Below are positions 19,968-50,326 of a stretch of 64,000 bases of DNA, one piece after another. The position numbers and the translations under genes are program-made. A model generated the notes under the pieces. That model was not told the DNA's origin and did no database searches. It saw only the letters and a list, made by a program, of their open reading frames with translations. This DNA is from Actinomycetota bacterium. GTDB lineage: Bacteria > Margulisbacteria > Marinamargulisbacteria > GCA-2716485 > GCA-002719695. The first letter of the stretch is position 1; each line of letters opens with the position of its first letter. The stretch is taken from assembly GCA_002697535.1 (NCBI GenBank), contig NZWE01000008.1:5796-69795 (forward strand), in the 5' to 3' direction.

Positions 19968-19968
19968 C

Positions 19969-20598: not shown

Positions 20599-21284
20599 TA
20601 TCCTTTTCTCCTTAATCGTTTTGCAAATGTTTCATAAGCTGATAAATCTTTACGTAAATAATCTTCTATTCCTTTACTTGTTATAGTCGCTCCACTCATC
20701 CCGTCTACATAATTTTTCTCTTTAATCTTACTAAAACCTTTATCAGCTACTTTTCCTTTAACGACACCAATTGAAACAAATTTTCCATTTATGTCTGTTA
20801 TTTTTTTACCAATAAATTGATCTTGAAACCATGGTTTTTCACATTCGCCTCCAAGCCCCGGTGTCTCTCCATGACTATACACCGTAAACCCCACAATTGA
20901 ATCTCCATCTCCATTAAAAGCAATATATCCATACATCCAACTCCATAATCCATAGGCTTTAAATGGTACCGCATATGTCTTTATGTTACTTGCATCTCCA
21001 ACTAAAAAAAGCGCTCTAGCTGTTTCTTCTTCTGTTAAATTCCCCTCACTATCTAAATAAAATTCTTTTACATTACCATTATAGTTCTCTTTAATTTCAT
21101 CACCCGTATATTTCTTATCTTTACTAATTAAATTTAGGGCTTTTAATATATTTTTTTGTCTATCAATTAATTTATTTTCATCTTGCCTTTCTTTTAATCC
21201 AACAGAGGCTGCTGTTAACGCAATGCTACAACAGACACACATAATAATCGCAAATCGAAATGTTTTTTGAGCTTCAGACAACAT
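20598..21284 (-). CDS. nqrC: Na+-NQR subunit C
   Basis: Single TM helix plus the FMN attachment motif VDGMSGATITS. Confidence 0.9.
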   Translation of the reverse strand: MLSEAQKTFRFAIIMCVCCSIALTAASVGLKERQDENKLIDRQKNILKALNLISKDKKYTGDEIKENYNGNVKEFYLDSEGNLTEEETARALFLVGDASNIKTYAVPFKAYGLWSWMYGYIAFNGDGDSIVGFTVYSHGETPGLGGECEKPWFQDQFIGKKITDINGKFVSIGVVKGKVADKGFSKIKEKNYVDGMSGATITSKGIEDYLRKDLSAYETFAKRLRRKG

Positions 21285-32919: not shown

Positions 32920-35273
32920 GAAAGGAATCTACACTACCGTTTATCCTTAACCTTGTAAAACGCAAGCAATATTTAGAAGCTCTTGATCGCTATAAAGCAT
33001 ACTTAACTCATCATCCTGATCATTTAGCACTCATTTTAATTGATCTATATAAAACACTTTATCAAGATCTTAACGATATTAATATTAGGCTCATTATTTC
33101 AGAATTATATATTAAATATCATTATTTTTCTGATGCTTGTATTGAGCTTGAAGAAATGTTTGAAATTAATCCCAATTTTTCTCAAACTTACTTTTTGTTA
33201 AGTAAAGTTTATACTCAAAATATGGAAATAGATACTGTTTGTCGCTTATTTGAAGAAGCCTTTCAATCTGGTATTCGTGATTCTGTTATTCTTGATTTTT
33301 TACCAAAAATTTATCTTGATACAAATGATATCTTTAAAGCAATTTCATTTTATGAATCTCTTCTAGAAGAAAAGGATTGCCTTCCTCATCAAAATAAAGT
33401 TTTAGCAGAACTTTATAAACGTGTCGGTAAATATGAAAAATGTGTTTGTATTTATCAAGATCTTGTTAAATCTGACCCTCAATTTTTAAAAGATGCCTGT
33501 TTATTACTAGAAAATATTTTAGTGTCTCATGCTAACTTACATTTTGTTAGAGAAGCGCTCCTTCATTTTTATATTACTTCTTGTGAACCTGATCAAGCCA
33601 TTGAGCATCTTACTTTTTTATGTTCATCGGCTGATTTTTCTCTTCAAAAATCTCAACCTATCTTTTTGAAAGTTATTGAAATTTACCCTTCACATATTCC
33701 AACACTGTTACTTTATTGTGAATGCTTAATTAAGGAAGAATCCATTACTGATGCTATTCCTCTTTTATCTGAATTGGCTACTTATAATCAAGATACGTTT
33801 ATTGAAACCGCTATTAATCTTATTCGTGAATCAAATCCAAATCATTTTGGATTTAATTTATTTTTAATTAATCGATTTATTACTCTTAACAACTATCAAG
33901 CTGCTCTTGATATTATTTCTACTTTAATTGAATCTCATTATACTCATGATATTTTTGATGATTTAAAATCATCTTGTCTTCAAATTTGGGATTCTGAAAC
34001 ATCAACCATTAAAATTCAAGCTAGCTATAATCTCGCTTTAATCTTATTTCATGAAGAAAAGCTTATTGACTCTATTAACTACTGTAATAACTGCGGAGAT
34101 GATCATCTTGATGCGATATGCTTAAAAATCTCTATTTTAATCAAACAAGATAATCTGATTGAAGCTAAAAAACTTGCTCTTCATCATCTTAACCAACATA
34201 TCAATTCAAAAAAATTACATGAGTTAATGTACCTTATTCACCAAAAGAATACAGCCTTACAACATGCTCAAACATCTATCCATTCTTTTAATTCTATTAT
34301 CAGTGATTTATCTTTAGGTAATACACACGAGGCTATTGATACGATCCAGCAAATTGATTCTGATCATTTTGATTATAATATTGCTCAACTTCTATTAATC
34401 CGTTGCTTTTATACTGAACAAAAGATTGATCATTCGCTCAATATACTTAATCAACTATCCCCTTACCTACGTGAAAAGGTTCCTGACCTTTATATTGATT
34501 CCCTTTTCTTAACAGCCATTTGCTTATATACATTAGGCCACTTTGAAGATGCCTCTAATATGCTTAATCAAATTGAAGAAATTAATATATCTCATTCTTT
34601 TACAAAATCCATGAAACAATATTTATATCGTATACCCTTTTCACAACATAAAGGGTTTGCTATTACAGGATTAATCAATGTTTGGAATAATTCTATTACT
34701 TATACAGCCATTCAGAATCCCGAAGAAGCCTTATCATCAAAAACGACACAATCAACAATTAGTTTTGGACTTAATCATAATGAAAAAGCATGTTTATATA
34801 TGATCAGAAAAAATTATAATAGTGCGCATTCTGAATTTAATTTATCATTACAACTTGATCCCTCCTTAACTATTTCTTATTGTAATTATTCCTTATATTT
34901 TACAGAAACTAACTCTTATGAAGAGGCTTCTTCTTCTATTGATAAAGCCAAAGAATCTAATAAAAATTTGGATATTATTTTTATCAATGAAGGTCTGTTA
35001 TATTATAAACAAGGCAAGCTTCAAGATGCGCTTATTTCTTTTCAGGAAGCCATTCGACTTAATCCAAAAAATTTACATGCTCAGTTTAATTTAGCTATGA
35101 TTTACTTTTTAAATAATAATATCGAATTATGTTTTCAATACCTTAAATCGCTATTACCTTATGGCTTATTATTTATTCCTATTCATCAATTTCTACATTA
35201 TTTAGAAGATGATCCGTTTATTATATCCCATTGGATTTCTCCTCAAAAGAATTATGATGTCTCTATTTTATAA
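32904..35273 (+). CDS. TPR-repeat protein
   Basis: Repeated 34-aa TPR-like units, for example ALISFQEAIRLNPKNLHAQFNLAMIYF. Translationally overlaps both neighbours. Confidence 0.6.
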   Translation: MQVQVRKESTLPFILNLVKRKQYLEALDRYKAYLTHHPDHLALILIDLYKTLYQDLNDINIRLIISELYIKYHYFSDACIELEEMFEINPNFSQTYFLLSKVYTQNMEIDTVCRLFEEAFQSGIRDSVILDFLPKIYLDTNDIFKAISFYESLLEEKDCLPHQNKVLAELYKRVGKYEKCVCIYQDLVKSDPQFLKDACLLLENILVSHANLHFVREALLHFYITSCEPDQAIEHLTFLCSSADFSLQKSQPIFLKVIEIYPSHIPTLLLYCECLIKEESITDAIPLLSELATYNQDTFIETAINLIRESNPNHFGFNLFLINRFITLNNYQAALDIISTLIESHYTHDIFDDLKSSCLQIWDSETSTIKIQASYNLALILFHEEKLIDSINYCNNCGDDHLDAICLKISILIKQDNLIEAKKLALHHLNQHINSKKLHELMYLIHQKNTALQHAQTSIHSFNSIISDLSLGNTHEAIDTIQQIDSDHFDYNIAQLLLIRCFYTEQKIDHSLNILNQLSPYLREKVPDLYIDSLFLTAICLYTLGHFEDASNMLNQIEEINISHSFTKSMKQYLYRIPFSQHKGFAITGLINVWNNSITYTAIQNPEEALSSKTTQSTISFGLNHNEKACLYMIRKNYNSAHSEFNLSLQLDPSLTISYCNYSLYFTETNSYEEASSSIDKAKESNKNLDIIFINEGLLYYKQGKLQDALISFQEAIRLNPKNLHAQFNLAMIYFLNNNIELCFQYLKSLLPYGLLFIPIHQFLHYLEDDPFIISHWISPQKNYDVSIL

Positions 35274-37761
35274 AATTAGTATTCTTTTATTATTATGCAG
35301 CGTTTCTTGCTTAGGTCGTTCGATGACGTTAGTTAGCGACTCTCTTGTTTTTGACGATTATCTTAGACGTGTTGATGCAACTGGTAATGTTCGTTTAATT
35401 CTTGATGAGGCCACTATCATGGGTGATCATTTAATGTTTTATGTTGATGATAATATGGTTATTAGCTCAGGTAACGTATTGATTAAACGTAAGGATAATG
35501 AATTTAATTCAAGTTCTCTTATTATTAACTTAGATGAAAAAAAATTACATTTAAATGATATTAAAATTGGTATTACCCCCTTTGGACAAAAGGGGAAAAT
35601 TTATATCACTATTAAAAAACTTATTGATACCCAGCAACGTAAAAAGGGTTATTTTGCTCGTTTTACAACCTGTAATGCTATTAAACCTCATTACTACCTT
35701 TCGAGTTGGCGTTTTCTATATTACCCTGACAAAAGCATTCATTTATTTGCTTCTCATTTTCGAAATGATTTATCATTTTTTCCTTTTAATATTATTCCCT
35801 TCCCTGTTCCTTTAATAGAATGGATCCCTATTCCTTACTATTACTATCAACTAGGGAAACGAAAAATAGTATTAAATTTTCCGACTATTGGGGAGAAAAA
35901 AAATTCGGGTTGGGGTTTATTTGTTCAGAATAAACTTGATTATCGTTATCATAATGATAAAGAATCATCATTATTTTTAGATTGGTACCAGGCTAAAGGA
36001 AATCGATCAGGAGAATGGGGGTATGGTCTCCATCATTATTATGGCAATAATTCAATTAATGGCGATATATACTTCTATAATTATGATTACAAGCTGGGTA
36101 ATGATAATAAAAAAAACCTTACGTATAAACTGAATCAAGAACTTTCTTTTAAAGATACCACACTGAAAGCGAGTTATTCATTAGTTGATGTAGATGAACG
36201 TATTAATTCTACGGGATCGTCTCATTCTATTAATAAATCTGTTTCATTGGACCATTCTCCTAACTCGTTTCCTTTATCAACATCCTATAAAGAAAATCGT
36301 AATATTTCTAACCAGTTTCAATCACAAAATTTTATCTTTAAAAAAGATTCTTTGCATCAAAACTCCTCTTTCTCATTAGATAAAAAACATTACGCTAGTA
36401 CCAATCGTTATACGACTCAATCTAAGCTCTCTCATTCTATTACCTTTCCTTTTAATATTAACATCAAACAGGACTTTAATTTTAAGGAGTATGACTATCG
36501 TGATACAGAAAGCTCTCCGGAACAAACATTAACATATGCCTCTTCACTATCAACAACATTACCACATAATATTGCGATGTCTGTTCAGATGAATTATTTA
36601 TATGATTTAGATCAAGATAGTGTTACAAGTGATATTAAAAGTGGAGTTAATAACTATTTATATAAACTTCCTGAAATTAAATTTTCTCAAAATCAGACAT
36701 TCTTTAAATCAAAACCTATTTATACCTTTCAAACCAATTCTATCGCTAGTCTTGGTAACTATCGTGAAGTTCGTTATTTTGCTGATGATCCTGATTATTC
36801 CTTGCCAGAAACCCTTAATGTTCTTGAACCCAATATGTATTTTTTCCGTCAAAAGTTTTCTAAATCTGTTGCGTCCTTACCTGCATCATCTAAATTAACG
36901 TTTAGTTCAACTTATGAGCAATATATTTTTAAAAATGAACATAAATCTCTTTTTGAAGGAGATGCTCAATATAGTTTAAATTATAATATTGCCTTAACTT
37001 CAACATTTTTATCCTTTATAAAACATTCTTCATCTTATTCAAGACAACATGGGCATAAAGATAATAACTCTCCTTTTTATGCATTTAAAAAATCTTTGTC
37101 TGAAAGTAATCGTTTAACCGAAAAAATTACGTTGTTTTATAATAAGAAACGATCGATATTATTTCCTTTTACACTTGATTTTAACTGGGATCATAGCACC
37201 TCTTATAACTGGCTATTATCCTCAAATCCTTACTCTAATTATGTCTCAAAACTTACGATGTCACTTAACAAAGTTTATAAACTGACGGCACAATCATCTA
37301 AAAATCTTAATAGATCTTGGAAAAAAGATAATAATTTATTTACGCCGTTAATGCTTACATTAAGTGGTAAAACAAAAGATAAACTTAATTTTAATTATTC
37401 CTTACACTTAAACATGAATGATCTTGTTTTTGATCAAACCTATATTGTTAATAACTCTGATTTTAATTTTAATTTTCCTCTTGGTAAAAACCCTGATTTC
37501 CAATGGAAACTTAAAGGATATTTTAAATATATTGAGCCAGGAAAAGCATTGCAGCTAAAGCATTATCAATTTCAAAAATTTTCTATTATTAAGGATGAAC
37601 ATGAAAGACAAATTGAAATTGGGTATAATAAAACTATTAAAGAATTCTTTTTTAAATTTCATTTTAAAATGTTTTCAAAAGATCCATTGATTATACGTAA
37701 AACTAATAATGTTGTAAAATTTGAGGGTCGTCTTAATAAAAAATCACAAGAAAGGTTTTAA
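35254..37761 (+). CDS. LPS-assembly outer-membrane protein, LptD/OstA-like
   Basis: Signal peptide, then an OstA-like N-domain (DATGNVRLILDEATIMGDHLMFY ... SSGNVLIKRKDNEF) and a long Y/N/S-rich beta-barrel-like region. Start set at the ATGATG at 35254. Confidence 0.55.
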   Translation: MMSLFYKISILLLLCSVSCLGRSMTLVSDSLVFDDYLRRVDATGNVRLILDEATIMGDHLMFYVDDNMVISSGNVLIKRKDNEFNSSSLIINLDEKKLHLNDIKIGITPFGQKGKIYITIKKLIDTQQRKKGYFARFTTCNAIKPHYYLSSWRFLYYPDKSIHLFASHFRNDLSFFPFNIIPFPVPLIEWIPIPYYYYQLGKRKIVLNFPTIGEKKNSGWGLFVQNKLDYRYHNDKESSLFLDWYQAKGNRSGEWGYGLHHYYGNNSINGDIYFYNYDYKLGNDNKKNLTYKLNQELSFKDTTLKASYSLVDVDERINSTGSSHSINKSVSLDHSPNSFPLSTSYKENRNISNQFQSQNFIFKKDSLHQNSSFSLDKKHYASTNRYTTQSKLSHSITFPFNINIKQDFNFKEYDYRDTESSPEQTLTYASSLSTTLPHNIAMSVQMNYLYDLDQDSVTSDIKSGVNNYLYKLPEIKFSQNQTFFKSKPIYTFQTNSIASLGNYREVRYFADDPDYSLPETLNVLEPNMYFFRQKFSKSVASLPASSKLTFSSTYEQYIFKNEHKSLFEGDAQYSLNYNIALTSTFLSFIKHSSSYSRQHGHKDNNSPFYAFKKSLSESNRLTEKITLFYNKKRSILFPFTLDFNWDHSTSYNWLLSSNPYSNYVSKLTMSLNKVYKLTAQSSKNLNRSWKKDNNLFTPLMLTLSGKTKDKLNFNYSLHLNMNDLVFDQTYIVNNSDFNFNFPLGKNPDFQWKLKGYFKYIEPGKALQLKHYQFQKFSIIKDEHERQIEIGYNKTIKEFFFKFHFKMFSKDPLIIRKTNNVVKFEGRLNKKSQERF

Positions 37762-38447
37762 TGAAATACTTTATTATTGTTTTGTCTTTATTACTATTAA
37801 CAGGATGTGCTAGAACTATTTCGTCTGGTGGTGACGTTATTAATTTAGAATTTAAAATCTCCACACAAGGTCCTATCAATACTAGTAACACTATTTATCT
37901 TCTTGTTTTCTCATCAACTCAATTAATTCTTTCTGAAAAAGCAACCCTTGATGATTACTTTATCTTTCCTGGTAAATACTTTGACGATTCAAGATTAGCT
38001 ACTTTACCTGGTAAAGATATTAATTATTACTACACTTCTTATTTTAAATATTGGAAACAGTTTCTTTACCTGACTAATAATTCTATTGAACTTACTACAG
38101 CCTCTGCTAATAGTTTTGATGCTTCTATTGCCACTATTGAAGATCATCAATCTATTGAACCTTCTCAGGGCTTTGAAGGTATCCAGTCCATTCATGCAGA
38201 TACACTTACGATTACTGTTGATATTACCCAATTAGGTTACGAAGAATCTGATACCGTTTATTTTAGTATCTTAACATTTGAAAAAGATACTTCTTCAGAA
38301 GCTGGCATTATTAAAGATTTTTTAACGAATGATTCATCTCATGTGATTGATCTTACTAAAAATCAACTTAATTCTGGAAATAATTCTGAGAATACATCGC
38401 TTGATACTCACCACGACATTGTTCAATGGCAATACAGAGTTTATTAA
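37761..38447 (+). CDS. lipoprotein of unknown function (positional LptE candidate)
   Basis: Lipobox LLLTGC at residues 11-16. Its ATG overlaps the lptD-like stop (TAATG). Confidence 0.6.
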   Translation: MKYFIIVLSLLLLTGCARTISSGGDVINLEFKISTQGPINTSNTIYLLVFSSTQLILSEKATLDDYFIFPGKYFDDSRLATLPGKDINYYYTSYFKYWKQFLYLTNNSIELTTASANSFDASIATIEDHQSIEPSQGFEGIQSIHADTLTITVDITQLGYEESDTVYFSILTFEKDTSSEAGIIKDFLTNDSSHVIDLTKNQLNSGNNSENTSLDTHHDIVQWQYRVY

Positions 38448-39968: not shown

Positions 39969-40595
39969 TTAAAAATCAAAGTTTTCAACTTCAGTTTCTT
40001 GCTCTTGATTTGTCTCTGCTTGCTTTTTTTCTTCTTCAATCTCTTCTGCTGTTTTTAATACAATCAAATCAAATAATCGTTTAAATATACGTTCAGCCAT
40101 CGGCGTAGCTTCTACTTTACATGTTTGATACGCTGCTATTTTTTCGTCTGCCATATGTTCTTGGATAGCGTTTCCCAATTCTTCTTCAACATATTTAAAG
40201 AAAAATGCAATCATCTGGTTTTCTTGAGAACTCAAATGTGATGCTATGGTTTCTAATGACCGATAATTTTCCGGAAAGAGCTTCTCTTCTGGGATCACTT
40301 CTTCTTCCTCAGGTTCTTCTTCTCTATCTTCCATTTCTTCTTCTTTTTCTTCTTCTTCTTCTGAAAATAAATCGTCTTCACCACTATCTGATATTTCAAA
40401 TTCTTTTTCGCTAACTCCTTCTAATACTAATGTTAAAAACTCTCCCATTTCTTCATCATTAATCGTTGGTACATCATCTAAAGTTGAGGTTAATATGGTA
40501 GCACTTTCCTCTGATAAATGTTTTAAAACATCCGTACTCTTTTCTTCAATTAAACTAATTAATAATTGAGATTTTTGCTTTCCTGTTAAGTTCAT
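39969..40595 (-). CDS. FliG-like protein, truncated (N-terminal domain plus an acidic insert; no C-terminal torque domain)
   Basis: LTGKQKSQLLISLIEEKSTDVLKHLSEE matches the FliG N-domain signature (LTGxEKAAILLxxLGEExAAxVxKxL). Followed by an E-rich tract (EEEEEKEEEMEDREEEPEEEE). Total 208 aa, compared with about 330 for FliG. Start overlaps the fliF stop. Confidence 0.6.
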   Translation of the reverse strand: MNLTGKQKSQLLISLIEEKSTDVLKHLSEESATILTSTLDDVPTINDEEMGEFLTLVLEGVSEKEFEISDSGEDDLFSEEEEEKEEEMEDREEEPEEEEVIPEEKLFPENYRSLETIASHLSSQENQMIAFFFKYVEEELGNAIQEHMADEKIAAYQTCKVEATPMAERIFKRLFDLIVLKTAEEIEEEKKQAETNQEQETEVENFDF

Positions 40596-42220
40596 GATGC
40601 AACCTCTTCTAGCACAAAATCTTCTTCTAATTCAGTTTGAGCTTCTTCAGTTTGCTCATTGCTATCGTCCTCTTTTTCCTTTAACCAATCTTCCATAATA
40701 GCCGCTAATTTTTCTGGAAATTCGACTGCTAATTCTCTTAATTTCTCTAATTTTGTATCATTATCAAGATCTTCGTCTTCTTCTAAATCACCATCATCCA
40801 GATTATCAAATTCATCTTCATTGATATTTTCAACAACTTTATTTTCTTCACGTCGTGCTTTTCGTATAAATCGTATTACAAATATAATGATGGCAATACC
40901 CACTATAATGCTTGCTGCTAACAAAAGATAATCTAATAATCCTTGTCTAGTATGCTTGGCTATTAATGCTTTTTTCTCGCTCTCTGTATAAATAGGAAAC
41001 TCAGCAATACTTAATTGTATGGAATCTCTACCTCTGATATACCCTACTGATCCAGCTACTGTTTGAAATACCTGCTGCTTAAAGGCTTTATCTACAAAAA
41101 TATCATCATTTAATCCATCAATTACAATACTTATGGTTTGTCTTTTTATATCAACTATATTTCCATTTTCAAGTGGTCCTAAATCTGATGTTACCTCAAC
41201 TTTAAACGATGCAATTGGCATAATTCCAAATAATTGTTTTTCTACTTTTTGTTTTAACGTATTCTCAAAATTCCACTTTATTTCAAACCATTCTTGTATA
41301 CGATCATAATTAGGGATTATAGGACTTCCCATTGCCTCTTCTCGACTAATGGCTGCTAAAATAGGGGCTCGGCTTTTTTCTTCTGCTACATATGTTCCGG
41401 CTCGTTTTGATGCTAATCTTTCAAAAAGACTATCCGATAATAGATTTCCCTCTGTATCAATAACGGATACATTTTCTACTTGCAAATTTTCAACTGCATT
41501 TGACACTAATTGAATAATACTAAAGACAATTTCATCCGTTATCTCACTTCCTTGAATAATTCGTATAATAATCGATGATGTCACAGGCGGTTGAGTTACT
41601 GTAAATAAACGCTGTTCTGGTAATACAATTTGTACTTTTGCTGATTCAATAATATCTAATTGTGTAATTGCTTTTTCTAATTCGCCTGACAAGGCTCTTA
41701 AAAACCGAATCCGTTTATCAAATTCTGTTACGCCTAAGGTTTGAGCATCATCTAATAATTCATACCCACTCTTTGCTTTTCCTGATGGAATTCCTTTAAT
41801 GGCCAACAAATTTCTTGCTAGTTCCGCTTCATCTTCTGCTACTAAAATTGTAAATTTTTGACCATTTTGTTCGGTTTTAAATTGTATTTCTGCTAAACTA
41901 ATTTCTTTTAAAATTTTGCTCGTATCGCCACCATCTAACTGACTAAATAATTTTACATACTTTATTTTTTTTCTACTTTTCTTACTTTTATCTACTTTAT
42001 TTTTTGATACCATTATATTTTTGTTACTATGCTTACTAACGGATTTATTTGACTCATTACCTCTTCCTAACATTGTTAGCAATATCACAATAATAATAAC
42101 GCCTGCTATTAATCCCCCAATAATGAATTGTCTATTTGACTGTTTTGGAGGCAATGGCTCTGGTTGGGAAACTGGTTCCTCTAATGTGGGTTCTTCTTGA
42201 ATTATTTCTTCTTCAGCCAT
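40592..42220 (-). CDS. fliF: flagellar MS-ring protein FliF
   Basis: N-terminal TM helix, YscJ/FliF-type periplasmic domains (YVKLFSQLDGGDTSKILKEIS ... ILVAEDEAELARNLLAIKGIP), a second TM helix and an acidic C-terminal FliG-binding tail. Confidence 0.9.
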   Translation of the reverse strand: MAEEEIIQEEPTLEEPVSQPEPLPPKQSNRQFIIGGLIAGVIIIVILLTMLGRGNESNKSVSKHSNKNIMVSKNKVDKSKKSRKKIKYVKLFSQLDGGDTSKILKEISLAEIQFKTEQNGQKFTILVAEDEAELARNLLAIKGIPSGKAKSGYELLDDAQTLGVTEFDKRIRFLRALSGELEKAITQLDIIESAKVQIVLPEQRLFTVTQPPVTSSIIIRIIQGSEITDEIVFSIIQLVSNAVENLQVENVSVIDTEGNLLSDSLFERLASKRAGTYVAEEKSRAPILAAISREEAMGSPIIPNYDRIQEWFEIKWNFENTLKQKVEKQLFGIMPIASFKVEVTSDLGPLENGNIVDIKRQTISIVIDGLNDDIFVDKAFKQQVFQTVAGSVGYIRGRDSIQLSIAEFPIYTESEKKALIAKHTRQGLLDYLLLAASIIVGIAIIIFVIRFIRKARREENKVVENINEDEFDNLDDGDLEEDEDLDNDTKLEKLRELAVEFPEKLAAIMEDWLKEKEDDSNEQTEEAQTELEEDFVLEEVAS

Positions 42221-42309
42221 ATTTAATAATTGTTATATGATATATATGTTTATTTTACATTAGACTTACTACATAAGTCACGTAAATAGACTGATTTATT
42301 ATTAATTTT

Positions 42310-42873
42310 TTAAATAGCTAACTGCGTTATTTCTTTAAATGTTTGCGTAGCAGATGATAAAACGGTTGTTGCAAATGATACGGCTAAATTTAACTTCATT
42401 GTCTCAACACTCACTTCATCTAACGAAACTTTTCCTTCAATATATTGCTCTGTTAAATCATTTACTCGATATTCCATTGTACTAATACTTTCTAGCACCT
42501 CTATTGATTTATCTAATAACATTTGAAATGGTGTTACTTCTACACGATTCGTACTCAGATAAACATTTTCATCATCTTGTCCTTGAACATTTTGACGTCT
42601 ATTTTGATTATTTTGAACTTCACGAAATATGTTTTCTATTTCTTCCGGTGCTAATGCCTGCGCTAACAGCTCTCTATTTTCTTCTTCTGATACAATTCTT
42701 GGTTTTTGATTAAAGTTATAATCAATTCCATCGACATCATTTGGATTAACCCCATTTAATGCTTCATCAAAAAAGTTTTGAAATGGTACCTTTGGCATCA
42801 TTTCTTTATTAACAGCATTTGCCTTTTGAGGTTTCATTTGCATCATATCCAAAGGGTCTAATTTCTTATTCAT
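42310..42873 (-). CDS. fliE: FliE-like basal-body protein with a long N-terminal extension
   Basis: The C-terminal 75 aa (…FQMLLDKSIEVL…VSVETMKLNLAVSFATTVLSSATQTFKEITQLAI) align to the FliE pattern. At 187 aa it is much longer than the usual ~100. Canonical position after flgC. Confidence 0.65.
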   Translation of the reverse strand: MNKKLDPLDMMQMKPQKANAVNKEMMPKVPFQNFFDEALNGVNPNDVDGIDYNFNQKPRIVSEEENRELLAQALAPEEIENIFREVQNNQNRRQNVQGQDDENVYLSTNRVEVTPFQMLLDKSIEVLESISTMEYRVNDLTEQYIEGKVSLDEVSVETMKLNLAVSFATTVLSSATQTFKEITQLAI

Positions 42874-43319
42874 TTTAATAATTCCATTGTAGACTGGTAC
42901 ATCGCTTTTGTCAGTTTAAATGCATTAATATTTGCTTCATACATAGCCTCTGTGTGCTTTAGTGTTACCATTTCATTTGGCATATTAACATTCGGCAAAT
43001 AAAAATATCCATCTTCATCGGACTGTGGCGCCGCTGGATCAAAGTATCGACTAAATGGCTCTGTACTTCGTTCAATATCAACTACCTTTACACCAATATC
43101 GGAGGCTTCTAATACTAAATATTTTTTTTGGTAGGGCAATCCTGTTTCTTCATCTTTTAAAGTCATTAAGTTGGCAACATTTTCTGCCGTCATTGTCATT
43201 TTCATCCGCTGAGAAACAATACCACTCATATTGATCTGGAATGCATCTTCTAATGTACTTAACTGTGCGGCTATTGGTGATAGTAATATTAAACTGATAA
43301 TGATTACTTTAATCAACAT
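42870..43319 (-). CDS. flgC: flagellar proximal rod protein FlgC (with a hydrophobic N-terminal extension)
   Basis: QINMSGIVSQRMKMTMTAENVANLMT (rod N-motif) and C-terminal VNMPNEMVTLKHTEAMYEANINAFK. ATG at 43319, 2 nt after the flgB TAG (the track start is a GTG at 43322). Confidence 0.85.
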   Translation of the reverse strand: MLIKVIIISLILLSPIAAQLSTLEDAFQINMSGIVSQRMKMTMTAENVANLMTLKDEETGLPYQKKYLVLEASDIGVKVVDIERSTEPFSRYFDPAAPQSDEDGYFYLPNVNMPNEMVTLKHTEAMYEANINAFKLTKAMYQSTMELLK

Positions 43320-43321
43320 CA

Positions 43322-43708
43322 CTAGCGTTTTCCCATTGTAGCTATCTGCCGATAGGTATCAAACCGTTTTTTATATAACGTCAAGTAACTTGCTTGTAAA
43401 TTTCTGTTTTTTGCCATGCTCGCTGACATATGCTCTAATAATACTTTTTTTCTTAACTCACTATTATTTGGAATAATTTGATTTAATTCTTCCTGGTCTT
43501 CTGGATACAGAACCGGCTCAAAGCCAGGAGTGGTAATATTAGCAATATTATACGAAAAAAGCGCATGCTTTTTTGTTGCTTTATAAATTGCTTTTTCTAA
43601 TTTTTGATCAGCTGGATACAATGCCAATTTACCTTCATTTTGCTGTGCCCATATCGATCCACTTAAATATATAAGTATACTTATGGCTATTAATTGATAT
43701 TTATTCAT
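43322..43708 (-). CDS. flgB: flagellar proximal rod protein FlgB (with a hydrophobic N-terminal extension)
   Basis: Rod motif SYNIANITTPGFEP. Position upstream of flgC. ATG overlaps the fliA stop by 8 nt. Confidence 0.8.
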   Translation of the reverse strand: MNKYQLIAISILIYLSGSIWAQQNEGKLALYPADQKLEKAIYKATKKHALFSYNIANITTPGFEPVLYPEDQEELNQIIPNNSELRKKVLLEHMSASMAKNRNLQASYLTLYKKRFDTYRQIATMGKR

Positions 43709-44423
43709 TCTGTTTCAATCCTTCTAATCGATGTTTTAATCTATCTAAAACATTCATATGAATACGACATATTCGACTTTTAGATAACTTTAAATGCTTA
43801 GCAATTTCTACTTGCTTAAGTCCATGTATATAAAATAATTCTATAACATCTTTGTCGGGATGTTCTAGATCATAAATCTCTTTCCATAAAAAATCATAAT
43901 TTTCATCCACAACTTCTATCTCAGGGTCTTTTGTTCCTTTACTTTCAGATATATTTTGCTTCATATCGCCTGATATATAATGAACAAACGTCGCTGATTC
44001 AACTGCCTCATTAACCTTTTCTTTAGGCTTACTATTAGACTCATTTATAGTATCTTCGATAAACTCTGATAATGTTTCTTGTAATTTTTTTCTTCTGTCA
44101 CGGTACTCTTGAGGAATTCGTGAATTCCATTCATTACGAATTGAATCCAATATTTCACCTCTAATACGATAATAAGCATAGGTTTGAAATTTAGTTTTCA
44201 AGTCTTTCTTAAACCCTTTTTTAGCTTTTAATAATCCTTCAACTCCCCAACTAATTAAATCTCCATAATCAATACAACTAGGAACTTTCCCTGCATGTAA
44301 AATTTTTGATGCAATGTTTTTTATTAATGGCATATGCTCATTAATAAACTCTTCAGAATGCCCTCTATCTTTTCGAGCATCATTATATTGTAGTTTAGTT
44401 ATATCAACGTTTTTCTTTGACAT
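43701..44423 (-). CDS. fliA: RNA polymerase sigma factor, FliA/sigma-28 family
   Basis: Region 2 FQTYAYYRIRGEILDSIR and region 4 HTH LKQVEIAKHLKLSKSRICRIHMNVLDRLK. Embedded in the flagellar operon. Confidence 0.8.
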   Translation of the reverse strand: MSKKNVDITKLQYNDARKDRGHSEEFINEHMPLIKNIASKILHAGKVPSCIDYGDLISWGVEGLLKAKKGFKKDLKTKFQTYAYYRIRGEILDSIRNEWNSRIPQEYRDRRKKLQETLSEFIEDTINESNSKPKEKVNEAVESATFVHYISGDMKQNISESKGTKDPEIEVVDENYDFLWKEIYDLEHPDKDVIELFYIHGLKQVEIAKHLKLSKSRICRIHMNVLDRLKHRLEGLKQNE

Positions 44424-44426
44424 TTT

Positions 44427-44759
44427 TTATTCCCTAAAATATTCATCTAAGTTTAATAAATCTTGATCTGCTAAATATTTAGATAGTTGCCTTGCATAAA
44501 TTACATTCATTAATTCATTTGATTGTTTTGTATCATAAATGGCATCCTCTTCAATTTCAATAACACTTGTTGATTTAAATAACGGTTGTACAAATATTTG
44601 TTGAATAAATAATGCTTGCATTTTTTTCATAGCATCTTCCTCACTGCCAATTTCATAATTTGGATTTAATAACTGATAATAACTCATATCAGGCATCTGT
44701 CCTACTACACTAGCTGTGAATATTAACATCAAACTTATTATATAAAAAATTGTCTTCAT
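44427..44759 (-). CDS. rod-binding protein (FlgJ N-terminal-domain-like)
   Basis: 110 aa located directly after flgI. AMKKMQALFIQQIFVQPLFK ... MNVIYARQLSKYLA resembles the Rod_binding domain. There is no muramidase domain. Confidence 0.45.
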   Translation of the reverse strand: MKTIFYIISLMLIFTASVVGQMPDMSYYQLLNPNYEIGSEEDAMKKMQALFIQQIFVQPLFKSTSVIEIEEDAIYDTKQSNELMNVIYARQLSKYLADQDLLNLDEYFRE

Positions 44760-45826
44760 AATATTTCTAAATCAGCTACAAGAGCTCCTGACTCTTTTAA
44801 TGCTTGGATAATATTAATTAATTCTTTAGGTGTTACACCTATTTGGTTTAATGAATTCACTAAATTTGATAAGGTATCAGCTGCCTCTAAATAAACTAAC
44901 GGTTTTTTTGATTCATTTATTGTAATAGGATCTTCTTGTGCCCCAAATAACCCTCCGGCATCATTATTAATTTTTATTGAAACGCCTCCATGAGTAATTG
45001 CAACAGGAAATAATTTAACATTTTCTCCAATAATGATCGTTCCTGTTTTTGAATTCACAACAATTCGTGATGATACATCAGGTGTAATTTCTATATTCTC
45101 AATTTCAGATATAGCTGTTATTAAATCGGAAGACTTTAAATCTTCTAATGGAATTTTAATGGTATTGCCATCTATTGCTTTGGCGCCCTTATAGCCTTTC
45201 TCTTGTAATGCTTTCATCGCTTTTGCTACTGTAAAGAAATTTGGTCTATCTAAAACCATTGTAATATTATGTTGATCTGTAAACGTTACTGGCACCTCAG
45301 CTTCTACTATAGCTCCATTTGGTATTGAGCCTACCGTTGCTTGATTTCTATAAAGCTGTGTTGTCGCAGATACTTCACTTGCTCCATCAATGACTATATT
45401 TCCTTGCGCTACAGCATATGTTTTCATGTCAGGTCCCATCATTGGGGTCATAATTAATGTTCCCCCAATCAAAGAACTTGCATCTCCTAATGCTGATACC
45501 GTTACTGATATACGTTGACCCTTTTTTAAAAATGATGGTAAATTGGCTGTTACTAAAACAGAGGCTGCATTTCTAGCATTTAAATTTACGCCACTTATTG
45601 AAACTCCCATTTTTGATAATAAGTTTCTTAAAGCATTATTTGTTAAACCGGCAGCTCTAGAATCACCACTTCCTCTTAGCCCCACAACAATCCCATACCC
45701 TGCCAATTGATTGTCTCTTGATTCAATTAATTTCCCAATATCTTTTAATCGTACAGTATTAGACTGAGAATAAGATAGACTCCCTAACAAACTTAACATT
45801 ATTAAAATAGATGTTAAAATTTTCAT
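44756..45826 (-). CDS. flgI: flagellar P-ring protein FlgI
   Basis: Signal peptide followed by RLKDIGKLIESRDNQLAGYGIVVGLRGSGDS, with FlgI-like sequence conserved along the full length. Confidence 0.95.
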   Translation of the reverse strand: MKILTSILIMLSLLGSLSYSQSNTVRLKDIGKLIESRDNQLAGYGIVVGLRGSGDSRAAGLTNNALRNLLSKMGVSISGVNLNARNAASVLVTANLPSFLKKGQRISVTVSALGDASSLIGGTLIMTPMMGPDMKTYAVAQGNIVIDGASEVSATTQLYRNQATVGSIPNGAIVEAEVPVTFTDQHNITMVLDRPNFFTVAKAMKALQEKGYKGAKAIDGNTIKIPLEDLKSSDLITAISEIENIEITPDVSSRIVVNSKTGTIIIGENVKLFPVAITHGGVSIKINNDAGGLFGAQEDPITINESKKPLVYLEAADTLSNLVNSLNQIGVTPKELINIIQALKESGALVADLEIL

Positions 45827-45827
45827 A

Positions 45828-46436
45828 CTAAAACAACCAATTAAATACTTTCGTCATAATACCAGGAGATTGCTTTGAAGCTACTACCCCACTTCCATGT
45901 ACTGAAATTTCAGCTTTAGCAACTTGATATGAATAGACTGAATTCTTTGGAGAAATATCTTGAGGCCGAATAACACCTGCTACTCGAATTGTCTCCAACT
46001 CATCATTGACTTTTACTTTATGAATTCCTTCAACATATAAATTTCCATTATCTAATATTTCAGTGACTACTGATGAAACGACCGCCTTAACCTGACTTCT
46101 ACGCGAGGTTTGTCCCGATCCTTCATACTTATCATCACCATTTAACCCATATTGTCTTTTTTGATTTAACGTTTCATTTCCTAATAAATTTCCTACTTGC
46201 TCCCAATTATTTTGAATTGAAGCGCCTAACCGCGATTCTCTTTCTGTACTGGTTGATGCTTGCTGTGCCGCTGATGTTGATTCTGACACATAAATCGTAA
46301 TGATATCACCAACTCGGATTAGCCGTCTGTTAACACCATAAAACGGTGTTTTCGCATTATCAAATAACGAATCTGCGACAACCTCCATAGGCCATAGCAA
46401 ACTAATTAGAACTAATAAGAATATGTTTTTTATCAA
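45828..46436 (-). CDS. flgH: flagellar L-ring protein FlgH
   Basis: SLFDN ... RVGDIITIYVSESTSA ... LYVEGIHKVKVNDELETIRVAGVIRPQDI, typical FlgH. The signal peptide has no lipobox Cys. Confidence 0.9.
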   Translation of the reverse strand: MIKNIFLLVLISLLWPMEVVADSLFDNAKTPFYGVNRRLIRVGDIITIYVSESTSAAQQASTSTERESRLGASIQNNWEQVGNLLGNETLNQKRQYGLNGDDKYEGSGQTSRRSQVKAVVSSVVTEILDNGNLYVEGIHKVKVNDELETIRVAGVIRPQDISPKNSVYSYQVAKAEISVHGSGVVASKQSPGIMTKVFNWLF

Positions 46437-47121
46437 TTACTTTTCCTCTTAATATTTTTTTTGTTTCTGTCTTCATTCGAATCATATCACCTATCATCCC
46501 TGAATCTAATGCTGTAACATCCGATTTAATCTCAAAGCCTGATGATTTGATAACTAATTTTACATGTTCTCCTTTTTGCACATCAGGAACAAGTTCAATC
46601 CATCGATCTGAAAATGCAATTCCTTTTATCATCGATCGTTTTGTTTGCTTTCCTATAATAATATCTTTATTAAAAATATAATCTTCGGATCGTGATGTTA
46701 ACTTAATTCTTTTTTGAGTAATATCATTATTAGAAATAATATCATTTGTTTTTATTTTTCTATTAGATACATAAACATCTCCATAGACGCTGGTTTCTAA
46801 AGCACATTTTTCTGTTTTAATAATTGTATTTTCTTCTGATAAAAATGCCGTATCTAATATAATCTTTCCCATTAAGGTTTGTGGTTTTGCTAAATCTACA
46901 AAGATATAAAAGACATCTTTAGAAATATCATTAAAAATTTCTGAGTTTTTTATCTCGACATTCACGTCTGGATTTTTTACATCTCCCATTTGTCCTAGTA
47001 TTTGATTTTCAATTTCAGTCTCTAATATTGTACTAGAAAAATTAGCAACACTATATTGCTTTGCAGATAGATTAACTGAAAAAAATACTGCTAATAAAAT
47101 TACCCAAAACACTCTCAACAT
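46402..47121 (-). CDS. flgA: flagellar P-ring assembly chaperone FlgA
   Basis: Signal peptide and a C-terminal SAF/FlgA pattern GEHVKLVIKSSGFEIKSDVTALDSGMIGDMIRMK. Position between flgG and flgH. Confidence 0.75.
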   Translation of the reverse strand: MLRVFWVILLAVFFSVNLSAKQYSVANFSSTILETEIENQILGQMGDVKNPDVNVEIKNSEIFNDISKDVFYIFVDLAKPQTLMGKIILDTAFLSEENTIIKTEKCALETSVYGDVYVSNRKIKTNDIISNNDITQKRIKLTSRSEDYIFNKDIIIGKQTKRSMIKGIAFSDRWIELVPDVQKGEHVKLVIKSSGFEIKSDVTALDSGMIGDMIRMKTETKKILRGKVIDKKHILISSN

Positions 47122-47124
47122 TAT

Positions 47125-47928
47125 TTATTTTCCTATATCACTCGCTGCCTTTAACATTGCATCTGCTGATTTAATGGTCGAGTTTACTAACTCAAATGTT
47201 CGCTGACATAACAACATATTCATCATTTCTTCAATGATATTAACATTTGAAAACTCTAATGCTCTTTGCTTTACCATCCCAACACCATTTTCACCAGGAA
47301 TTGTTAACTCTGGATCGCCTGATGCAGCTGTTGCTCTAAATAAATTTTGACCAACGTCTTTTAATCCTCCTGCATTTGGAAAATTCACTAAATAAACCTG
47401 ACCTATTTCTGTTGGCTGGACAGTATTTGCTGTTTGAGCAAACACCTCACCTGCTTCATTAATAATAATTTCAGTCGTATTAGCTGGTATTGTAATAGCT
47501 GGATCAAGTGGATGCCCATTTGGATTTAATACATTACCTTCTGCATCTGCATGCAGGTTTCCAGCCCTACTAAACCCATAGGTTCCATCTGGCATTAAAA
47601 ATTGTAAAAATCCTTTTCCTTCTATAGCAACATCCAGTTGTTGATTTGTCATTTCAATTGATCCGGTTGTAAAGTCTTTTGTTACATCAACAATACGTAT
47701 TCCTTGACCATACTCTAAGTATTTCTTACGTTTTCGTCCTGCACCCGGTGATACCTCATCAAACTCTGAATAGGCTCTTTCTAATACTAATGGAAATAAA
47801 CTCTCCATTTCCATACGCTTCTTTTTATATCCAACCGTTTGCGCATTCGCAATATTGTTTGCAATAACCTGCATTTTTCTTTCATAAGAAAAATATGCTG
47901 ATTTTGCCATAAATAACTGTGATAACAT
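47125..47928 (-). CDS. flgG: flagellar distal rod protein FlgG
   Basis: N-terminus MQVIANNIANAQTVGYKK and C-terminus LEFSNVNIIEEMMNMLLCQRTFELVNSTIKSAD. The N-terminus is canonical, with no hydrophobic extension. Confidence 0.9.
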   Translation of the reverse strand: MLSQLFMAKSAYFSYERKMQVIANNIANAQTVGYKKKRMEMESLFPLVLERAYSEFDEVSPGAGRKRKKYLEYGQGIRIVDVTKDFTTGSIEMTNQQLDVAIEGKGFLQFLMPDGTYGFSRAGNLHADAEGNVLNPNGHPLDPAITIPANTTEIIINEAGEVFAQTANTVQPTEIGQVYLVNFPNAGGLKDVGQNLFRATAASGDPELTIPGENGVGMVKQRALEFSNVNIIEEMMNMLLCQRTFELVNSTIKSADAMLKAASDIGK

Positions 47929-47951
47929 GTTGCTTTCCTCCTTTTATGTTT

Positions 47952-48773
47952 TTATGGACTCGATAATGTTGCCGCTGTATTTAACGCTCTATTCATTAAA
48001 TGAGCTGTTTTAACACTGGCATCATATGCATTTTTTGCCATTAATATATCCCCAGTAATCCCCTTTAAGACATTATTTTGCTCTAAAGCTCCCTGAACAA
48101 CCGCATAATGCTCTGGGCCTTCTTCTACGGGAACATCTTTTGTCAAAATAAAATAAGATCCATTTAATGATTCAAAGGACTGCATTGCCGCAAATGTTTT
48201 GAATACTACAATTTTCATACTTGAAACAGGCTGTCCATCAACATAAATAAGCCCTGATCGTGATACTAATATATCTTCACCTTCCGGCAAAATTATTTCA
48301 CCTTCTTCTCCTAATACTGGATAATTACCTGATAATGTTACCAATCTTCTCTTTGAATCTAATAAAAAACGGCCATCTCTTGTAAATGCAATCGTACCTG
48401 GTAACTGCACCACAAAAAAACCTCTACTATTAGCATCAATATAAAAATCTAGCTCTTTATTGGTTTCAATCATCGGACCAGCTCTCCATCTAAAAAAAGG
48501 CAAATAATCTAAATCATAGCCGTCTTCTGTCTTTTTTCTAGAATTATAAACACCTGTCTCAATAAATCCTGGCGTTCCAACATTTATCGTATAAAACATA
48601 AAGTTTGTATAATGCACCTGAAACATTCTCATAGCTTCCAATGTTGTTGACACTCCTTCATCTTGCACCTCACCAAAATTGGTATATCCATATAATGATG
48701 ATGTAACACTTAAAATCATTAGTAATATACCCATCGTGACATTTCTATAAACATTAAGTTGTTTTTTTATCAT
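47952..48773 (-). CDS. flgF: flagellar rod protein, FlgF-like (with a hydrophobic N-terminal extension)
   Basis: Rod motif TINVGTPGF and C-terminus VVQGALEQNNV ... AKNAYDASVKTAHLMN. Upstream of flgG. Confidence 0.7.
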   Translation of the reverse strand: MIKKQLNVYRNVTMGILLMILSVTSSLYGYTNFGEVQDEGVSTTLEAMRMFQVHYTNFMFYTINVGTPGFIETGVYNSRKKTEDGYDLDYLPFFRWRAGPMIETNKELDFYIDANSRGFFVVQLPGTIAFTRDGRFLLDSKRRLVTLSGNYPVLGEEGEIILPEGEDILVSRSGLIYVDGQPVSSMKIVVFKTFAAMQSFESLNGSYFILTKDVPVEEGPEHYAVVQGALEQNNVLKGITGDILMAKNAYDASVKTAHLMNRALNTAATLSSP

Positions 48774-49135
48774 TTTCTCTTCTTTCTTTTTAATTTTTTC
48801 TTTTTTGCCAGTCTATCTAATCGATACACAAACGATAATACTTCTGCCACCATATTATATAAATTAGGCGGTATTTCAGAATTTATAGCTAACTTTGATA
48901 ACAACTCCACTAAAGAAGAATCTTCATAAAATGGAACCTTATTATCTTCGGCAACCTTAAGTATCTTTTCCGCAATTTGACCTTTTCCAAACCCTGTAAT
49001 TTTTGGTGCCTTACTATTTTTCGAATCATACTTTAAAGCAATAGCTTTTAAATTATGCTTATTTTTAACATCAAGTTGATGTATATTTCGTTTTAATTTT
49101 ATATTTTTTGGCTTATCACTTTTTTTTGCATTCAT
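48770..49135 (-). CDS. stand-alone FlhB C-terminal-domain protein (YlqH / EscU-YscU-HrcU family fragment)
   Basis: AIALKYDSKNSKAPKITGFGKGQIAEKILKVAEDNKVPFYEDSSLVELL ... VAEVLSFVYRL aligns to the part of FlhB_C after the NPTH cleavage site. No TM domain. Confidence 0.75.
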   Translation of the reverse strand: MNAKKSDKPKNIKLKRNIHQLDVKNKHNLKAIALKYDSKNSKAPKITGFGKGQIAEKILKVAEDNKVPFYEDSSLVELLSKLAINSEIPPNLYNMVAEVLSFVYRLDRLAKKKKLKRKKRK

Positions 49136-49138
49136 AGT

Positions 49139-50326
49139 TTATACTTCCGTACTAATTCGTTTCATATTATTTAAATTAAATGTTGGTAATAATAACTTTT
49201 CGATATTGATGATCTTTTTTAATGATTGCACTTGAGTTACTTCATAATTTAATTCTTCCATAGATTTTTTTAGTTCAGGAACTTCATCTAAAACAAATTT
49301 TTGAGTCAATTCATTACTGCTATAAATCTTATATGCCATTTTTTTATCATTAATTTCAATAATGATCGTTAAGTCCCCTAAATCTGATGTTTCACACTTA
49401 ATCACAATTGTTGTGTTATTAGGATTTACTTTTCTCTTATTCTTAGGATCCTTACTTACCATAACCTCAATATCTTTCAATGCTTTTGCCATAGGATTTG
49501 GAATCATCCAATAATGAAAAAACTCCTCCGAAATTTGTTGATTTGAAGGACTTTTAGATAAAATTAATTGTGTCAATAAAACATCATGAAAGGCTGACGA
49601 ATCTTTTTCAACACTTTTAATTATTTTTTTTAAATTATCGGCTATTAAGTTATTAGATGATGATAACTTTTTATTAATCCCTTTTAAAAAATCTTGTAAA
49701 TATCTTAAATCTTGCACTAAGTCAGATTGCTTGTTGATCAACCCCTTAATATCTAAATTATCAGCATGCTTTTTCATGGTCTTTGTATCTTCTAAAAAGT
49801 CATCTAAAAACCCCGCAACCCCAGCGATCAATGACGGATCTAAAAATGCGCTAAAACCAGGCAATCCATTTTTTAATCCCTGCAACCCCTGAGACAATCT
49901 TGATAAACTTCCTGATAACTGAACATTATGCGATAAAAACTTTGAAATCAAATCCACAGCCTTAGCATTACCATCAAGTCCTTTTGAATAAGCAACGACA
50001 CTTGCCTCCAACTTGTTCCCCTTCTTACTCCCCTTAACCGCCTGCTCTATTAAATCAAAGGCTTCTGGAGATGCTTCGACTCCATACAATAACATAGTTG
50101 TTAAAATCTGCTTATTTTCAGGTGTAACCGCTTTTTGCAAATTTAATAAGGCCTGACTAATATCTTGTGAATTTAATATACGAACATACTCTGGTGTTTT
50201 TTGTAACGGCTGATCAGCACTCTTAATATTTGATTGATCACTATTTATATCCTGAATACTTTTAGGTAACGATTTTGAGTCGGTTGTCTGCTGAGGCTTA
50301 TTAACATCTCCACGTATATTTTGCAT
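49139..50326 (-). CDS. FliK-like hook-length-control-type protein (tentative)
   Basis: The C-terminal block IKCETSDLGDLTIIIEINDKKMAYKIYSSNELTQKFV...LKKSMEELNYEV resembles the Flg_hook domain (LxPxxLGxVxVxL...). Pairing with a FlhB_C-only gene is common in other genomes. Confidence 0.45.
   Translation of the reverse strand: MQNIRGDVNKPQQTTDSKSLPKSIQDINSDQSNIKSADQPLQKTPEYVRILNSQDISQALLNLQKAVTPENKQILTTMLLYGVEASPEAFDLIEQAVKGSKKGNKLEASVVAYSKGLDGNAKAVDLISKFLSHNVQLSGSLSRLSQGLQGLKNGLPGFSAFLDPSLIAGVAGFLDDFLEDTKTMKKHADNLDIKGLINKQSDLVQDLRYLQDFLKGINKKLSSSNNLIADNLKKIIKSVEKDSSAFHDVLLTQLILSKSPSNQQISEEFFHYWMIPNPMAKALKDIEVMVSKDPKNKRKVNPNNTTIVIKCETSDLGDLTIIIEINDKKMAYKIYSSNELTQKFVLDEVPELKKSMEELNYEVTQVQSLKKIINIEKLLLPTFNLNNMKRISTEV

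Follow-up and report, generated by a model that had tools for sequence, protein, structure and literature searches.

In textbook flagellar assembly, all axial proteins pass along the type III channel and are incorporated at the distal tip beneath a cap. The Salmonella rod proteins are early type III substrates with polar, disordered N-termini, and recognition by FlhB involves F45 of FlgB, a residue that is critical for FlhB-dependent secretion (PMC9307174). The flagellar components known to depend on the general secretory (Sec) pathway are of other kinds, namely rings, chaperones, enzymes and sheath, and none of them is an axial D0-coiled-coil rod protein. The spirochete sheath protein FlaA is one such Sec-dependent component. 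Borrelia BB0259, the lytic enzyme that partners a single-domain FlgJ, is likewise Sec-dependent (PMC8517470). Here we describe a flagellar-type gene cluster in which four rod and rod-cap proteins begin with N-termini resembling Sec signal peptides. It lies on a 64,000-nucleotide stretch of DNA with a GC content of about 31% (hereafter the window), which is part of contig C30 of the metagenome-assembled genome G000, a Candidatus Marinamargulisbacteria of the phylum Margulisbacteria (1.57 Mb, 33 contigs, 76% complete).

Judging from the sequences of this genome and its relatives, we consider it probable that the hydrophobic N-termini of FlgC and of the FlgF-like protein, and in Marinamargulisbacteria also those of FlgB and the FlgJ-N-like protein, are translated, cleavable signal peptides used by Sec and signal peptidase I, with FliE and FlgG remaining type III substrates. 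The proteins themselves are recognizable counterparts of the Salmonella and E. coli proximal rod and cap: FlgC aligns end to end, FlgB is related by fold and profile, the FlgF-like protein shares the D1 domain, 11 of 21 orthologs of the FlgJ-like protein match the Rod-binding domain, and the genes have the same neighbours (fliE, fliF, flgG, flgA, flgH and flgI). The difference from Salmonella lies in the putative Sec-type signal peptide that precedes the mature sequence in the Margulisbacteria proteins, and in the F45 position, which in the window is Tyr. The features concerned are the following:

47952..48773, minus strand: flgF-like gene for a rod protein, upstream of flgG, with a signal-like N-terminus (about residues 1-29); match to PF22692 (FlgE/F/G D1), 40 bits
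44427..44759, minus strand: flgJ-N-like gene (110 aa, rod-binding/cap domain only), directly after flgI, with signal-like residues 1-20; 11 of 21 orthologs match PF10135
43322..43708, minus strand: flgB (proximal rod), between fliA and flgC, with an N-terminal signal-like extension and a NIANITTPGF motif
43646..43708, minus strand: predicted FlgB signal peptide, residues 1-21, cut after SIWA, from the rule-based test
42870..43319, minus strand: flgC (proximal rod), with an N-terminal signal-like extension; TIGR01395 match of 97.6 bits over residues 27-150
43266..43319, minus strand: predicted FlgC signal peptide, residues 1-18, MLIKVIIISLILLSPIAA, predicted cut before Q, from the columns of alignment A1 and the core length

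A first-pass annotation of this DNA had claimed that four proteins of the cluster begin like signal peptides while FlgG and FliE of the same operon start ordinarily. Both halves of the claim hold: all four reading frames and N-termini are present on the minus strand, and the translations of FlgG, which begins MLSQLFMAKSAYF, and of FliE are ordinary. In the translated open reading frames (ORFs), with a slash at the putative cut site, FlgB starts MNKYQLIAISILIYLSGSIWA/QQ, FlgC MLIKVIIISLILLSPIAA/QL and the FlgJ-N-like protein MKTIFYIISLMLIFTASVVG/QM; the FlgF-like protein has the n-region MIKKQLNVYRNVT followed by GILLMILSVTSSLYG/YT. The four share one layout, in which a basic n-region (MNK in FlgB, K4 in FlgC, MK in the FlgJ-like protein, KK and R in the FlgF-like protein) leads into a hydrophobic core of 13-16 residues and a small-x-small site, after which the canonical rod sequence begins. 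The core sets in within the first 5-15 residues, so that the polar extreme N-terminus of early type III substrates is missing. A helix-breaking Ser-Pro often precedes the cut site in FlgC. Two other types of export signal were considered and rejected: a lipoprotein signal, as none of the four N-termini has a lipobox Cys at +1, and a twin-arginine translocation signal, as none has an RR motif.

The extensions are conserved. Genes for FlgC, FlgB, the FlgF-like and the FlgJ-like protein were recovered from about 40 genomes of the class, nearly all with the frame open through a variable, hydrophobic, signal-like N-terminus; FlgC orthologs with the same extension are found in 38 of 41 class genomes, and N-termini of the signal type are present in about 50 genomes of the class overall, as well as in some sister classes. 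We scored the longest ORFs with a rule-based test that asks for an n-region of net charge of at least 0, a hydrophobic core free of charges and permitted residues at -3 and -1. FlgC was positive in 69/75 cases (five of the six negatives are canonical second-set copies), FlgB in 40/48, the FlgF-like protein in 32/35 and the FlgJ-like protein in 12/13, with a hydrophobic N-terminus in 21 of the 22 listed orthologs of the last. As positive controls we used the known Sec substrates of the same clusters, FlgA (19/19), FlgH (12/12) and FlgI (35/38), whose signal peptides have the same length and style as those predicted for the rod proteins of the same operon. The negative controls gave 4/45 for FlgG, 1/48 for FliE, 0/49 for FliA and 0/28 for the FlhB C-terminal-domain paralog, and the FlgG N-terminus was canonical in all relatives inspected. 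FlgC from other phyla was positive in 0/55 cases after one mislabelled Margulisbacteria locus had been reassigned, in a set collected with a single C-terminal peptide pattern that makes it a sample and no census. By this comparison, signal-like N-termini in the rod proteins exceed chance.

In the FlgC alignment (A1), position -1 is Ala, Ser or Gly in 24 of 25 sequences, position -3 is Ala, Ser, Thr, Cys, Val, Ile or Leu in all 25, and +1 is Gln in 17, while the core residues vary freely yet remain hydrophobic. The median core length is 14-15 residues for FlgB, FlgC, FlgF-like and FlgJ-like proteins (interquartile range 13-16; FlgC median 15), compared with 15-16 for FlgI, FlgA and FlgH and 21-22 for the first transmembrane segment (TM1) of FliF. 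Since the cores match those of FlgI, FlgA and FlgH and fall short of FliF TM1, a cleavable signal peptide is favoured over a membrane anchor.

Several lines of evidence bear on where translation starts. The extension is open in frame in every ortholog, and nearly every locus has an upstream start codon. Within the window each start overlaps or abuts the stop of the upstream gene. The first-pass annotation described three of these junctions correctly: an 8-nt overlap between the fliA stop and the flgB ATG, a gap of 2 nt from the flgB stop to the flgC ATG, and a 4-nt overlap of the flgF ATG with the stop before it. A fourth junction, likewise a 4-nt overlap, joins the flgI stop to the flgJ-like ATG, and flgC also has an overlapping GTG at 43322. 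The same annotation was mistaken in asserting that no Met separates the hydrophobic segment of FlgF from the rod motif: M48, M50 and M59, as well as GTG and TTG codons, precede TINVGTPGF, all within the conserved N-terminal helix. There is no ATG, GTG or TTG between core and conserved helix in 9/22 FlgC, 4/33 FlgB and 2/24 FlgF sequences, fractions that are illustrative, many sequences having been lost in pattern anchoring (22 of 69 FlgC scored). Public gene calls give the same long form of FlgC (147-152 aa), and some give 136-142 aa; these are among the best 120 of 1861 matches in a profile search with FlgC, all 120 being close Marinamargulisbacteria relatives. The cluster is matched at 99% or more by contigs from two RNA libraries of a single study; together with contigs of a relative in a third library, they cover much of it. 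One of these contigs (43502-43811) covers the fliA-flgB junction and the flgB signal region. Contigs of this kind cannot give transcript ends, strand or translation starts, nor prove transcription, as DNA carry-over is possible.

The identities of the four proteins are of unequal firmness. FlgC scores 97.6 bits against TIGR01395, just under the cut-off of 102.1, with model positions 3-137 covered, and its gene sits between flgB and fliE, the expected position of flgC. It matches Salmonella FlgC (7bin_V) with E = 2e-12, query residues 26-148 to chain residues 5-132; because residue 26 aligns to residue 5 of the Salmonella protein, the hydrophobic stretch appears as a pure add-on in front of a complete FlgC. 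FlgB reaches 18 bits against TIGR01396, where the cut-off is 59, and a Pfam search with the window's FlgB gave no match. The profile of its orthologs has a sole match in the PDB, Salmonella FlgB, at E = 0.025 (profile position 41 to residue 13). An AlphaFold2 model (predicted local distance difference test score, pLDDT, 90.6) shows the rod hairpin with residues 3-26 as a separate helix and a low-confidence linker at residues 21-30; its top Foldseek matches are Salmonella rod FlgB chains, with probability 0.95-1.0, TM-score 0.55-0.69 and weak E-values of 0.09-0.7. The FlgF-like protein passes PF22692 (40 vs 27 bits), scores 70.8 bits against TIGR02490 (cut-off 178.5) and is so labelled because its gene sits upstream of flgG. 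For the window's FlgJ-like protein a Pfam search found nothing, and the profile of its orthologs found nothing in the PDB; 11 of 21 orthologs match PF10135 Rod-binding, with a best E of 9e-6. Conservation among the rod proteins extends to the ANNxAN..TPGF motif and to the N- and C-terminal D0 helices. A second FlgF-like protein with a signal-like N-terminus (MGYISFLFWFILSSFLFSQ) is encoded away from the cluster (G000 C5:55164-55955, minus strand), and many relatives have two or three signal-bearing FlgF-like paralogs, in tandem in G011.

Both export routes are represented in the host genome. Contig C9 encodes FlhA, full-length FlhB, FliP and an ORF in the FliR position, and the type III ATPase FliI is also present; these are the components whose presence in the rest of the genome the first-pass annotation had left to be checked. 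The gene for LepB (signal peptidase I) lies at G000 C18:18437-18913. We rejected loss of the type III system as a cause of the unusual N-termini: FlhA, FlhB, FliP and FliI are retained, and the signal-like N-termini are thus not due to loss of the gate. Between fliP and the ORF in the fliR position lies an ORF of 330 aa that is hydrophobic at its N-terminus and matches nothing in Pfam (G000 C9:2918-3910, plus strand). A 283-aa FlgE/G-like protein is encoded on contig C15. FlgD was not found in the host genome, a negative that carries no weight at 76% completeness.

The closest comparison is provided by sister classes of the same phylum (loci L247-L256). Their clusters have the identical gene order, fliK-flhB-C-flgF-flgG-flgA-flgH-flgI-fliA-flgB-flgC-fliE-fliF, an orthologous FlgG and no flagellin; they differ in that FlgB, FlgC and FlgF start canonically, for example with MGLDQALDIS and, in FlgF, MTDRILEIG. 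Clusters of signal type and canonical type are split on one branch of the unrooted FlgG tree (Shimodaira-Hasegawa-like approximate likelihood ratio test support 100), so that one change is enough; as every other bacterium sampled is of canonical type, parsimony points to gain of the signal. The tree shows a single origin of the putative signal trait within an orthologous cluster. The extension is a constant feature of FlgC and the FlgF-like protein inside the signal-type clade. In FlgB and the FlgJ-like protein it is present in most Marinamargulisbacteria and missing in some sister classes and in two class lineages, G020 and G021. In G020 (L028) and G021 (L034/L161), FlgB without the signal-like segment keeps an F-E-D-E-L type III recognition motif; the FlgJ-like protein of G021 also lacks the segment, and FlgC and the FlgF-like protein of both lineages still have one.

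This distribution can be set against the FlhB-recognition residue of FlgB. A Phe equivalent to F45 (in F-x-x-x-L/V) is present in 19/19 FlgB without signal peptide, aligned in 18 and two residues earlier in one (L222). In the order to which the window belongs, the position is occupied by Y, L, S, E, T or P, and by Tyr in the window itself (EPVLYPED). This hints that type III recognition of FlgB may have relaxed after gain of the Sec signal, an indication that is supportive only, since the region may be structural and the lineages are related.

The rod genes belong to a machine that is not an ordinary flagellum. The basal body is represented by FliF, FlgG, FlgH, FlgI, FlhA, FlhB, FliP and FliI, that is, MS ring, rod, LP rings, export gate and ATPase. 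PF00669 (flagellin/FlgL) was not found in the host genome, 76% complete, and is present in 1/41 class genomes and in 0/18 of those of high quality; TIGR02492 (FlgK) exceeds its cut-off in 0/41 Marinamargulisbacteria genomes, the class to which the FlgK search was confined. Across 146 genomes of the phylum, FlgC is present in 132 and PF00669 in 15. Thirteen of these 15 flagellin-bearing genomes hold two FlgC genes, the second belonging to a canonical flagellar set, and the four two-set genomes checked also have two FlhA genes. In two-set genomes the canonical FlgC (about 141-144 aa, starting MSFF) adjoins its own FliF, and the other FlgC has the signal-like extension and lies in a cluster with the window's gene order. 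The window's cluster is a distinct system without flagellin, and the sole one in Marinamargulisbacteria. The machine it encodes is a basal body of flagellar descent that comprises MS ring, rod, P and L rings and export gate, the stator genes being elsewhere in the genome. The first-pass treatment of the system as a flagellum needs correcting on this point.

Genes for MotB-plug proteins are found in 30/41 class genomes and for FliG_C in 32/41. The host genome itself has three MotB-plug ORFs and several unusual FliG forms: besides the 208-aa FliG_N-only protein next to fliF (window 39969-40595), others are encoded at G000 C22:21733-24666, C32:3526-5240 and C10:49754-51498. They include a 479-aa protein with a hydrophobic N-terminus, a weak FliF-C match and FliG_M and FliG_C domains, encoded directly upstream of a MotA/MotB-like pair, and two full-length FliG paralogs with a small ORF after each; one of these small ORFs has a weak match to FliM. 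Buchnera aphidicola also keeps basal-body and export genes without a filament gene, as the remnant of a reduced endosymbiont and with canonical axial N-termini. The Margulisbacteria state differs from it in being phylum-wide, in occurring in free-living marine and groundwater lineages and in the presence of stator genes and several FliG paralogs.

How could signal peptides on rod proteins be accommodated in such a machine? From the sequences, we infer Sec targeting, cleavage and assembly from the periplasm. The preproteins would be targeted to SecYEG and threaded into the periplasm, and LepB would cleave behind the small residue conserved at -1 (A|Q in FlgB and FlgC), leaving a mature start within a few residues of the canonical rod start. 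The mature subunits would next be built into the proximal rod from the periplasm, with FliPQR/FliE inside the MS ring as their base. FliE, FlgG, the FlgE/G-like protein and FliK, with their ordinary N-termini, would exit via the flagellar type III gate. A wider reading, to which we give slightly less than an even chance, is that one clade of Margulisbacteria possesses a flagellin-less rotary machine of flagellar type whose drive shaft is partly Sec-exported, with processed FlgC and FlgF, and later FlgB and the FlgJ cap, added from the periplasm while FliE and FlgG pass through the type III gate; such a hybrid of Sec and type III assembly would have arisen once, in a gene cluster that is otherwise orthologous.

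Of the alternatives, the simplest is that translation begins downstream and the hydrophobic codons are an untranslated leader. The window offers start codons for this, Met22 and Met25 in the FlgJ-like protein and GTG/TTG and Met48/50/59 after the segment in the FlgF-like protein, and some public gene calls make FlgC 136-142 aa. However, about 20 codons are open in frame in every ortholog at 31% GC, where we put the chance of a random frame being open at about 0.2 per locus, the hydrophobicity and the cut-site pattern appear to be under selection, an alternative start is lacking in several orthologs, start codons are coupled to the stops before them, and initiation at the FlgF Met codons would delete part of a conserved helix. 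We regard a downstream start as very improbable; judged on these frames, the N-termini appear translated and conserved and a start-codon artefact is essentially excluded, in line with the first-pass annotation, which had argued for the long forms. It had further proposed Sec-dependent delivery or membrane anchoring, and here only the former is favoured: the anatomy is that of a signal peptide by every sequence criterion tested, and the short cores and conserved small -1 residue speak against anchoring. Uncleaved signal anchors that tether rod-like subunits to the inner membrane, whether for good or transiently during assembly around the export gate, therefore seem unlikely to us. A rule-based test that flags FliF TM1 as well cannot formally split anchors from signal peptides, and the host protein with FliF-C, FliG-M and FliG-C domains begins with a similar hydrophobic segment. 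But the cores have 13-16 residues against 21-22 in FliF TM1, the -1/-3 pattern and the +1 Gln are conserved, and no linker separates the segment from the D0 helix, which would leave a tethered FlgC or FlgF unable to extend to its site several nanometres along the rod.

Alternatively, the proteins could have stayed type III substrates, the hydrophobic N-terminus being a modified export or assembly element (chaperone- or gate-interacting, or a rod-channel segment) that a dedicated factor shields from Sec. Hydrophobic type III substrates do exist, injectisome translocators among them, the full gate and ATPase are retained, and the F/Y of the FlhB-recognition motif survives in extended FlgB from deep branches. 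We think this unlikely, as a small -1 residue, an allowed -3 residue and cores of signal-peptide length have no rationale as a type III signal, the canonical early substrates, those of the sister classes and of this operon included, are polar at the N-terminus, the recognition Phe has degenerated in the window's order, and no candidate chaperone has been identified. Finally, the FlgC-, FlgF- and FlgB-like proteins might be exported by Sec and yet be no longer axial, co-opted into some other periplasmic structure of the flagellin-less machine. The absence of flagellin and FlgK, the multiplication of extension-bearing FlgF-like proteins (the second copy at G000 C5:55164-55955, tandem copies in relatives) and the low scores against the FlgB and FlgF models would fit such a fate, which we nevertheless judge decidedly unlikely: each class genome has one FlgB and one FlgC in conserved rod-gene order, the D0 helices and the ANNxAN..TPGF motif have been retained, the FlgB model finds its best fold matches in the Salmonella rod FlgB chains, and FlgG would still need a proximal rod beneath it.

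The Sec reading of the rod proteins has difficulties of its own. We know of no flagellum in which axial subunits are added from outside. The interior of the rod is lined by the N-terminal D0 helices, and it is hard to see how periplasmic subunits would be inserted under or beside the cap. Some lineages mix routes within one rod, with a FlgB lacking the signal peptide next to FlgC and FlgF that have one, which is mechanically awkward, and the type III recognition motif still has its F or Y in signal-bearing FlgB from deep branches. To this must be added that the rule-based test alone cannot separate a signal peptide from a short membrane anchor, and that the relatives are not independent, so that the counts overstate the statistical support. 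All of these points weigh against our preferred interpretation.

If it is true, axial proteins can assemble from outside the channel, which bears on the templating of the rod on FliPQR/FliE, on the need for a type III signal and on the evolution of flagella and related machines; the sister-class clusters with ordinary N-termini are a ready-made comparison. The survey also brings to light a phylum-wide flagellar-type motor without flagellin whose genes public annotations call FlgC or hypothetical proteins. In the literature searched, with most subscription journals outside reach, we found no description of Sec-type signals on axial flagellar proteins, no account of such an assembly route, of which none had been known at first pass either, and no report of flagellar genes in Margulisbacteria, including Marinamargulisbacteria and Saganbacteria. 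This suggests that what is new here is a flagellar basal body with an altered delivery route for the proximal rod, in a flagellin-less system that we did not find described either.

The window carries these genes in one co-directional flagellar-type cluster (39969-50326, minus strand), in the order FliK-like, FlhB-C paralog, FlgF-like, FlgG, FlgA, FlgH, FlgI, FlgJ-N-like, FliA, FlgB, FlgC, FliE, FliF and FliG_N-only. Its remaining members are:

49139..50326, minus strand: FliK-like protein; PF02120 Flg_hook at 27.1 bits, under the cut-off, position kept in all cluster types
48770..49135, minus strand: FlhB C-terminal-domain paralog, 121 aa; TIGR00789 at 88.9 bits, PF01312 at 63 bits over profile positions 262-335
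47125..47928, minus strand: flgG (distal rod), canonical N-terminus; TIGR02488 at 249.9 bits, PF00460 match
46402..47121, minus strand: flgA (P-ring chaperone, Sec substrate); PF13144 at 81.9 bits
45828..46436, minus strand: flgH (L ring, Sec substrate); PF02107 at 156.5 bits
44756..45826, minus strand: flgI (P ring, Sec substrate); PF02119 at 339.5 bits
43701..44423, minus strand: fliA (sigma-28 family); TIGR02479 at 121 bits, Sigma70 r2 and r4 matches
42310..42873, minus strand: fliE, 187 aa, with a long non-hydrophobic N-terminal extension; PF02049 at 22.6 bits over residues 112-187
40592..42220, minus strand: fliF (MS ring); PF01514 YscJ_FliF at 155 bits
39969..40595, minus strand: FliG N-terminal-domain-only protein, 208 aa; PF14842 FliG_N at 26 bits, no FliG_M or FliG_C match

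The N-terminal extension of FliE is polar and about 80 residues long; FliE of the sister classes has 99-122 aa. The stand-alone FlhB-C paralog, which exists on top of the full-length FlhB encoded on contig C9, is kept between fliK and flgF in clusters of both signal type and canonical type (loci L247-L256).

Elsewhere in the window there is an operon for an NqrA-F-type Na+-translocating NADH:quinone reductase with ApbE, and an NDH-2 gene is close by (regions 17061-23810 and 13720-14991, both minus strand); the Nqr operon fits a sodium-based energy economy of this marine lineage. Just downstream of the fliF/FliG_N end of the cluster, between lptF/G and lnt, the region 32904-38447 (plus strand) holds large ORFs of 789, 850 and 228 aa with tetratricopeptide repeats or without Pfam match. 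The 228-aa ORF begins in lipoprotein-like fashion, MKYFIIVLSLLLLTGC.

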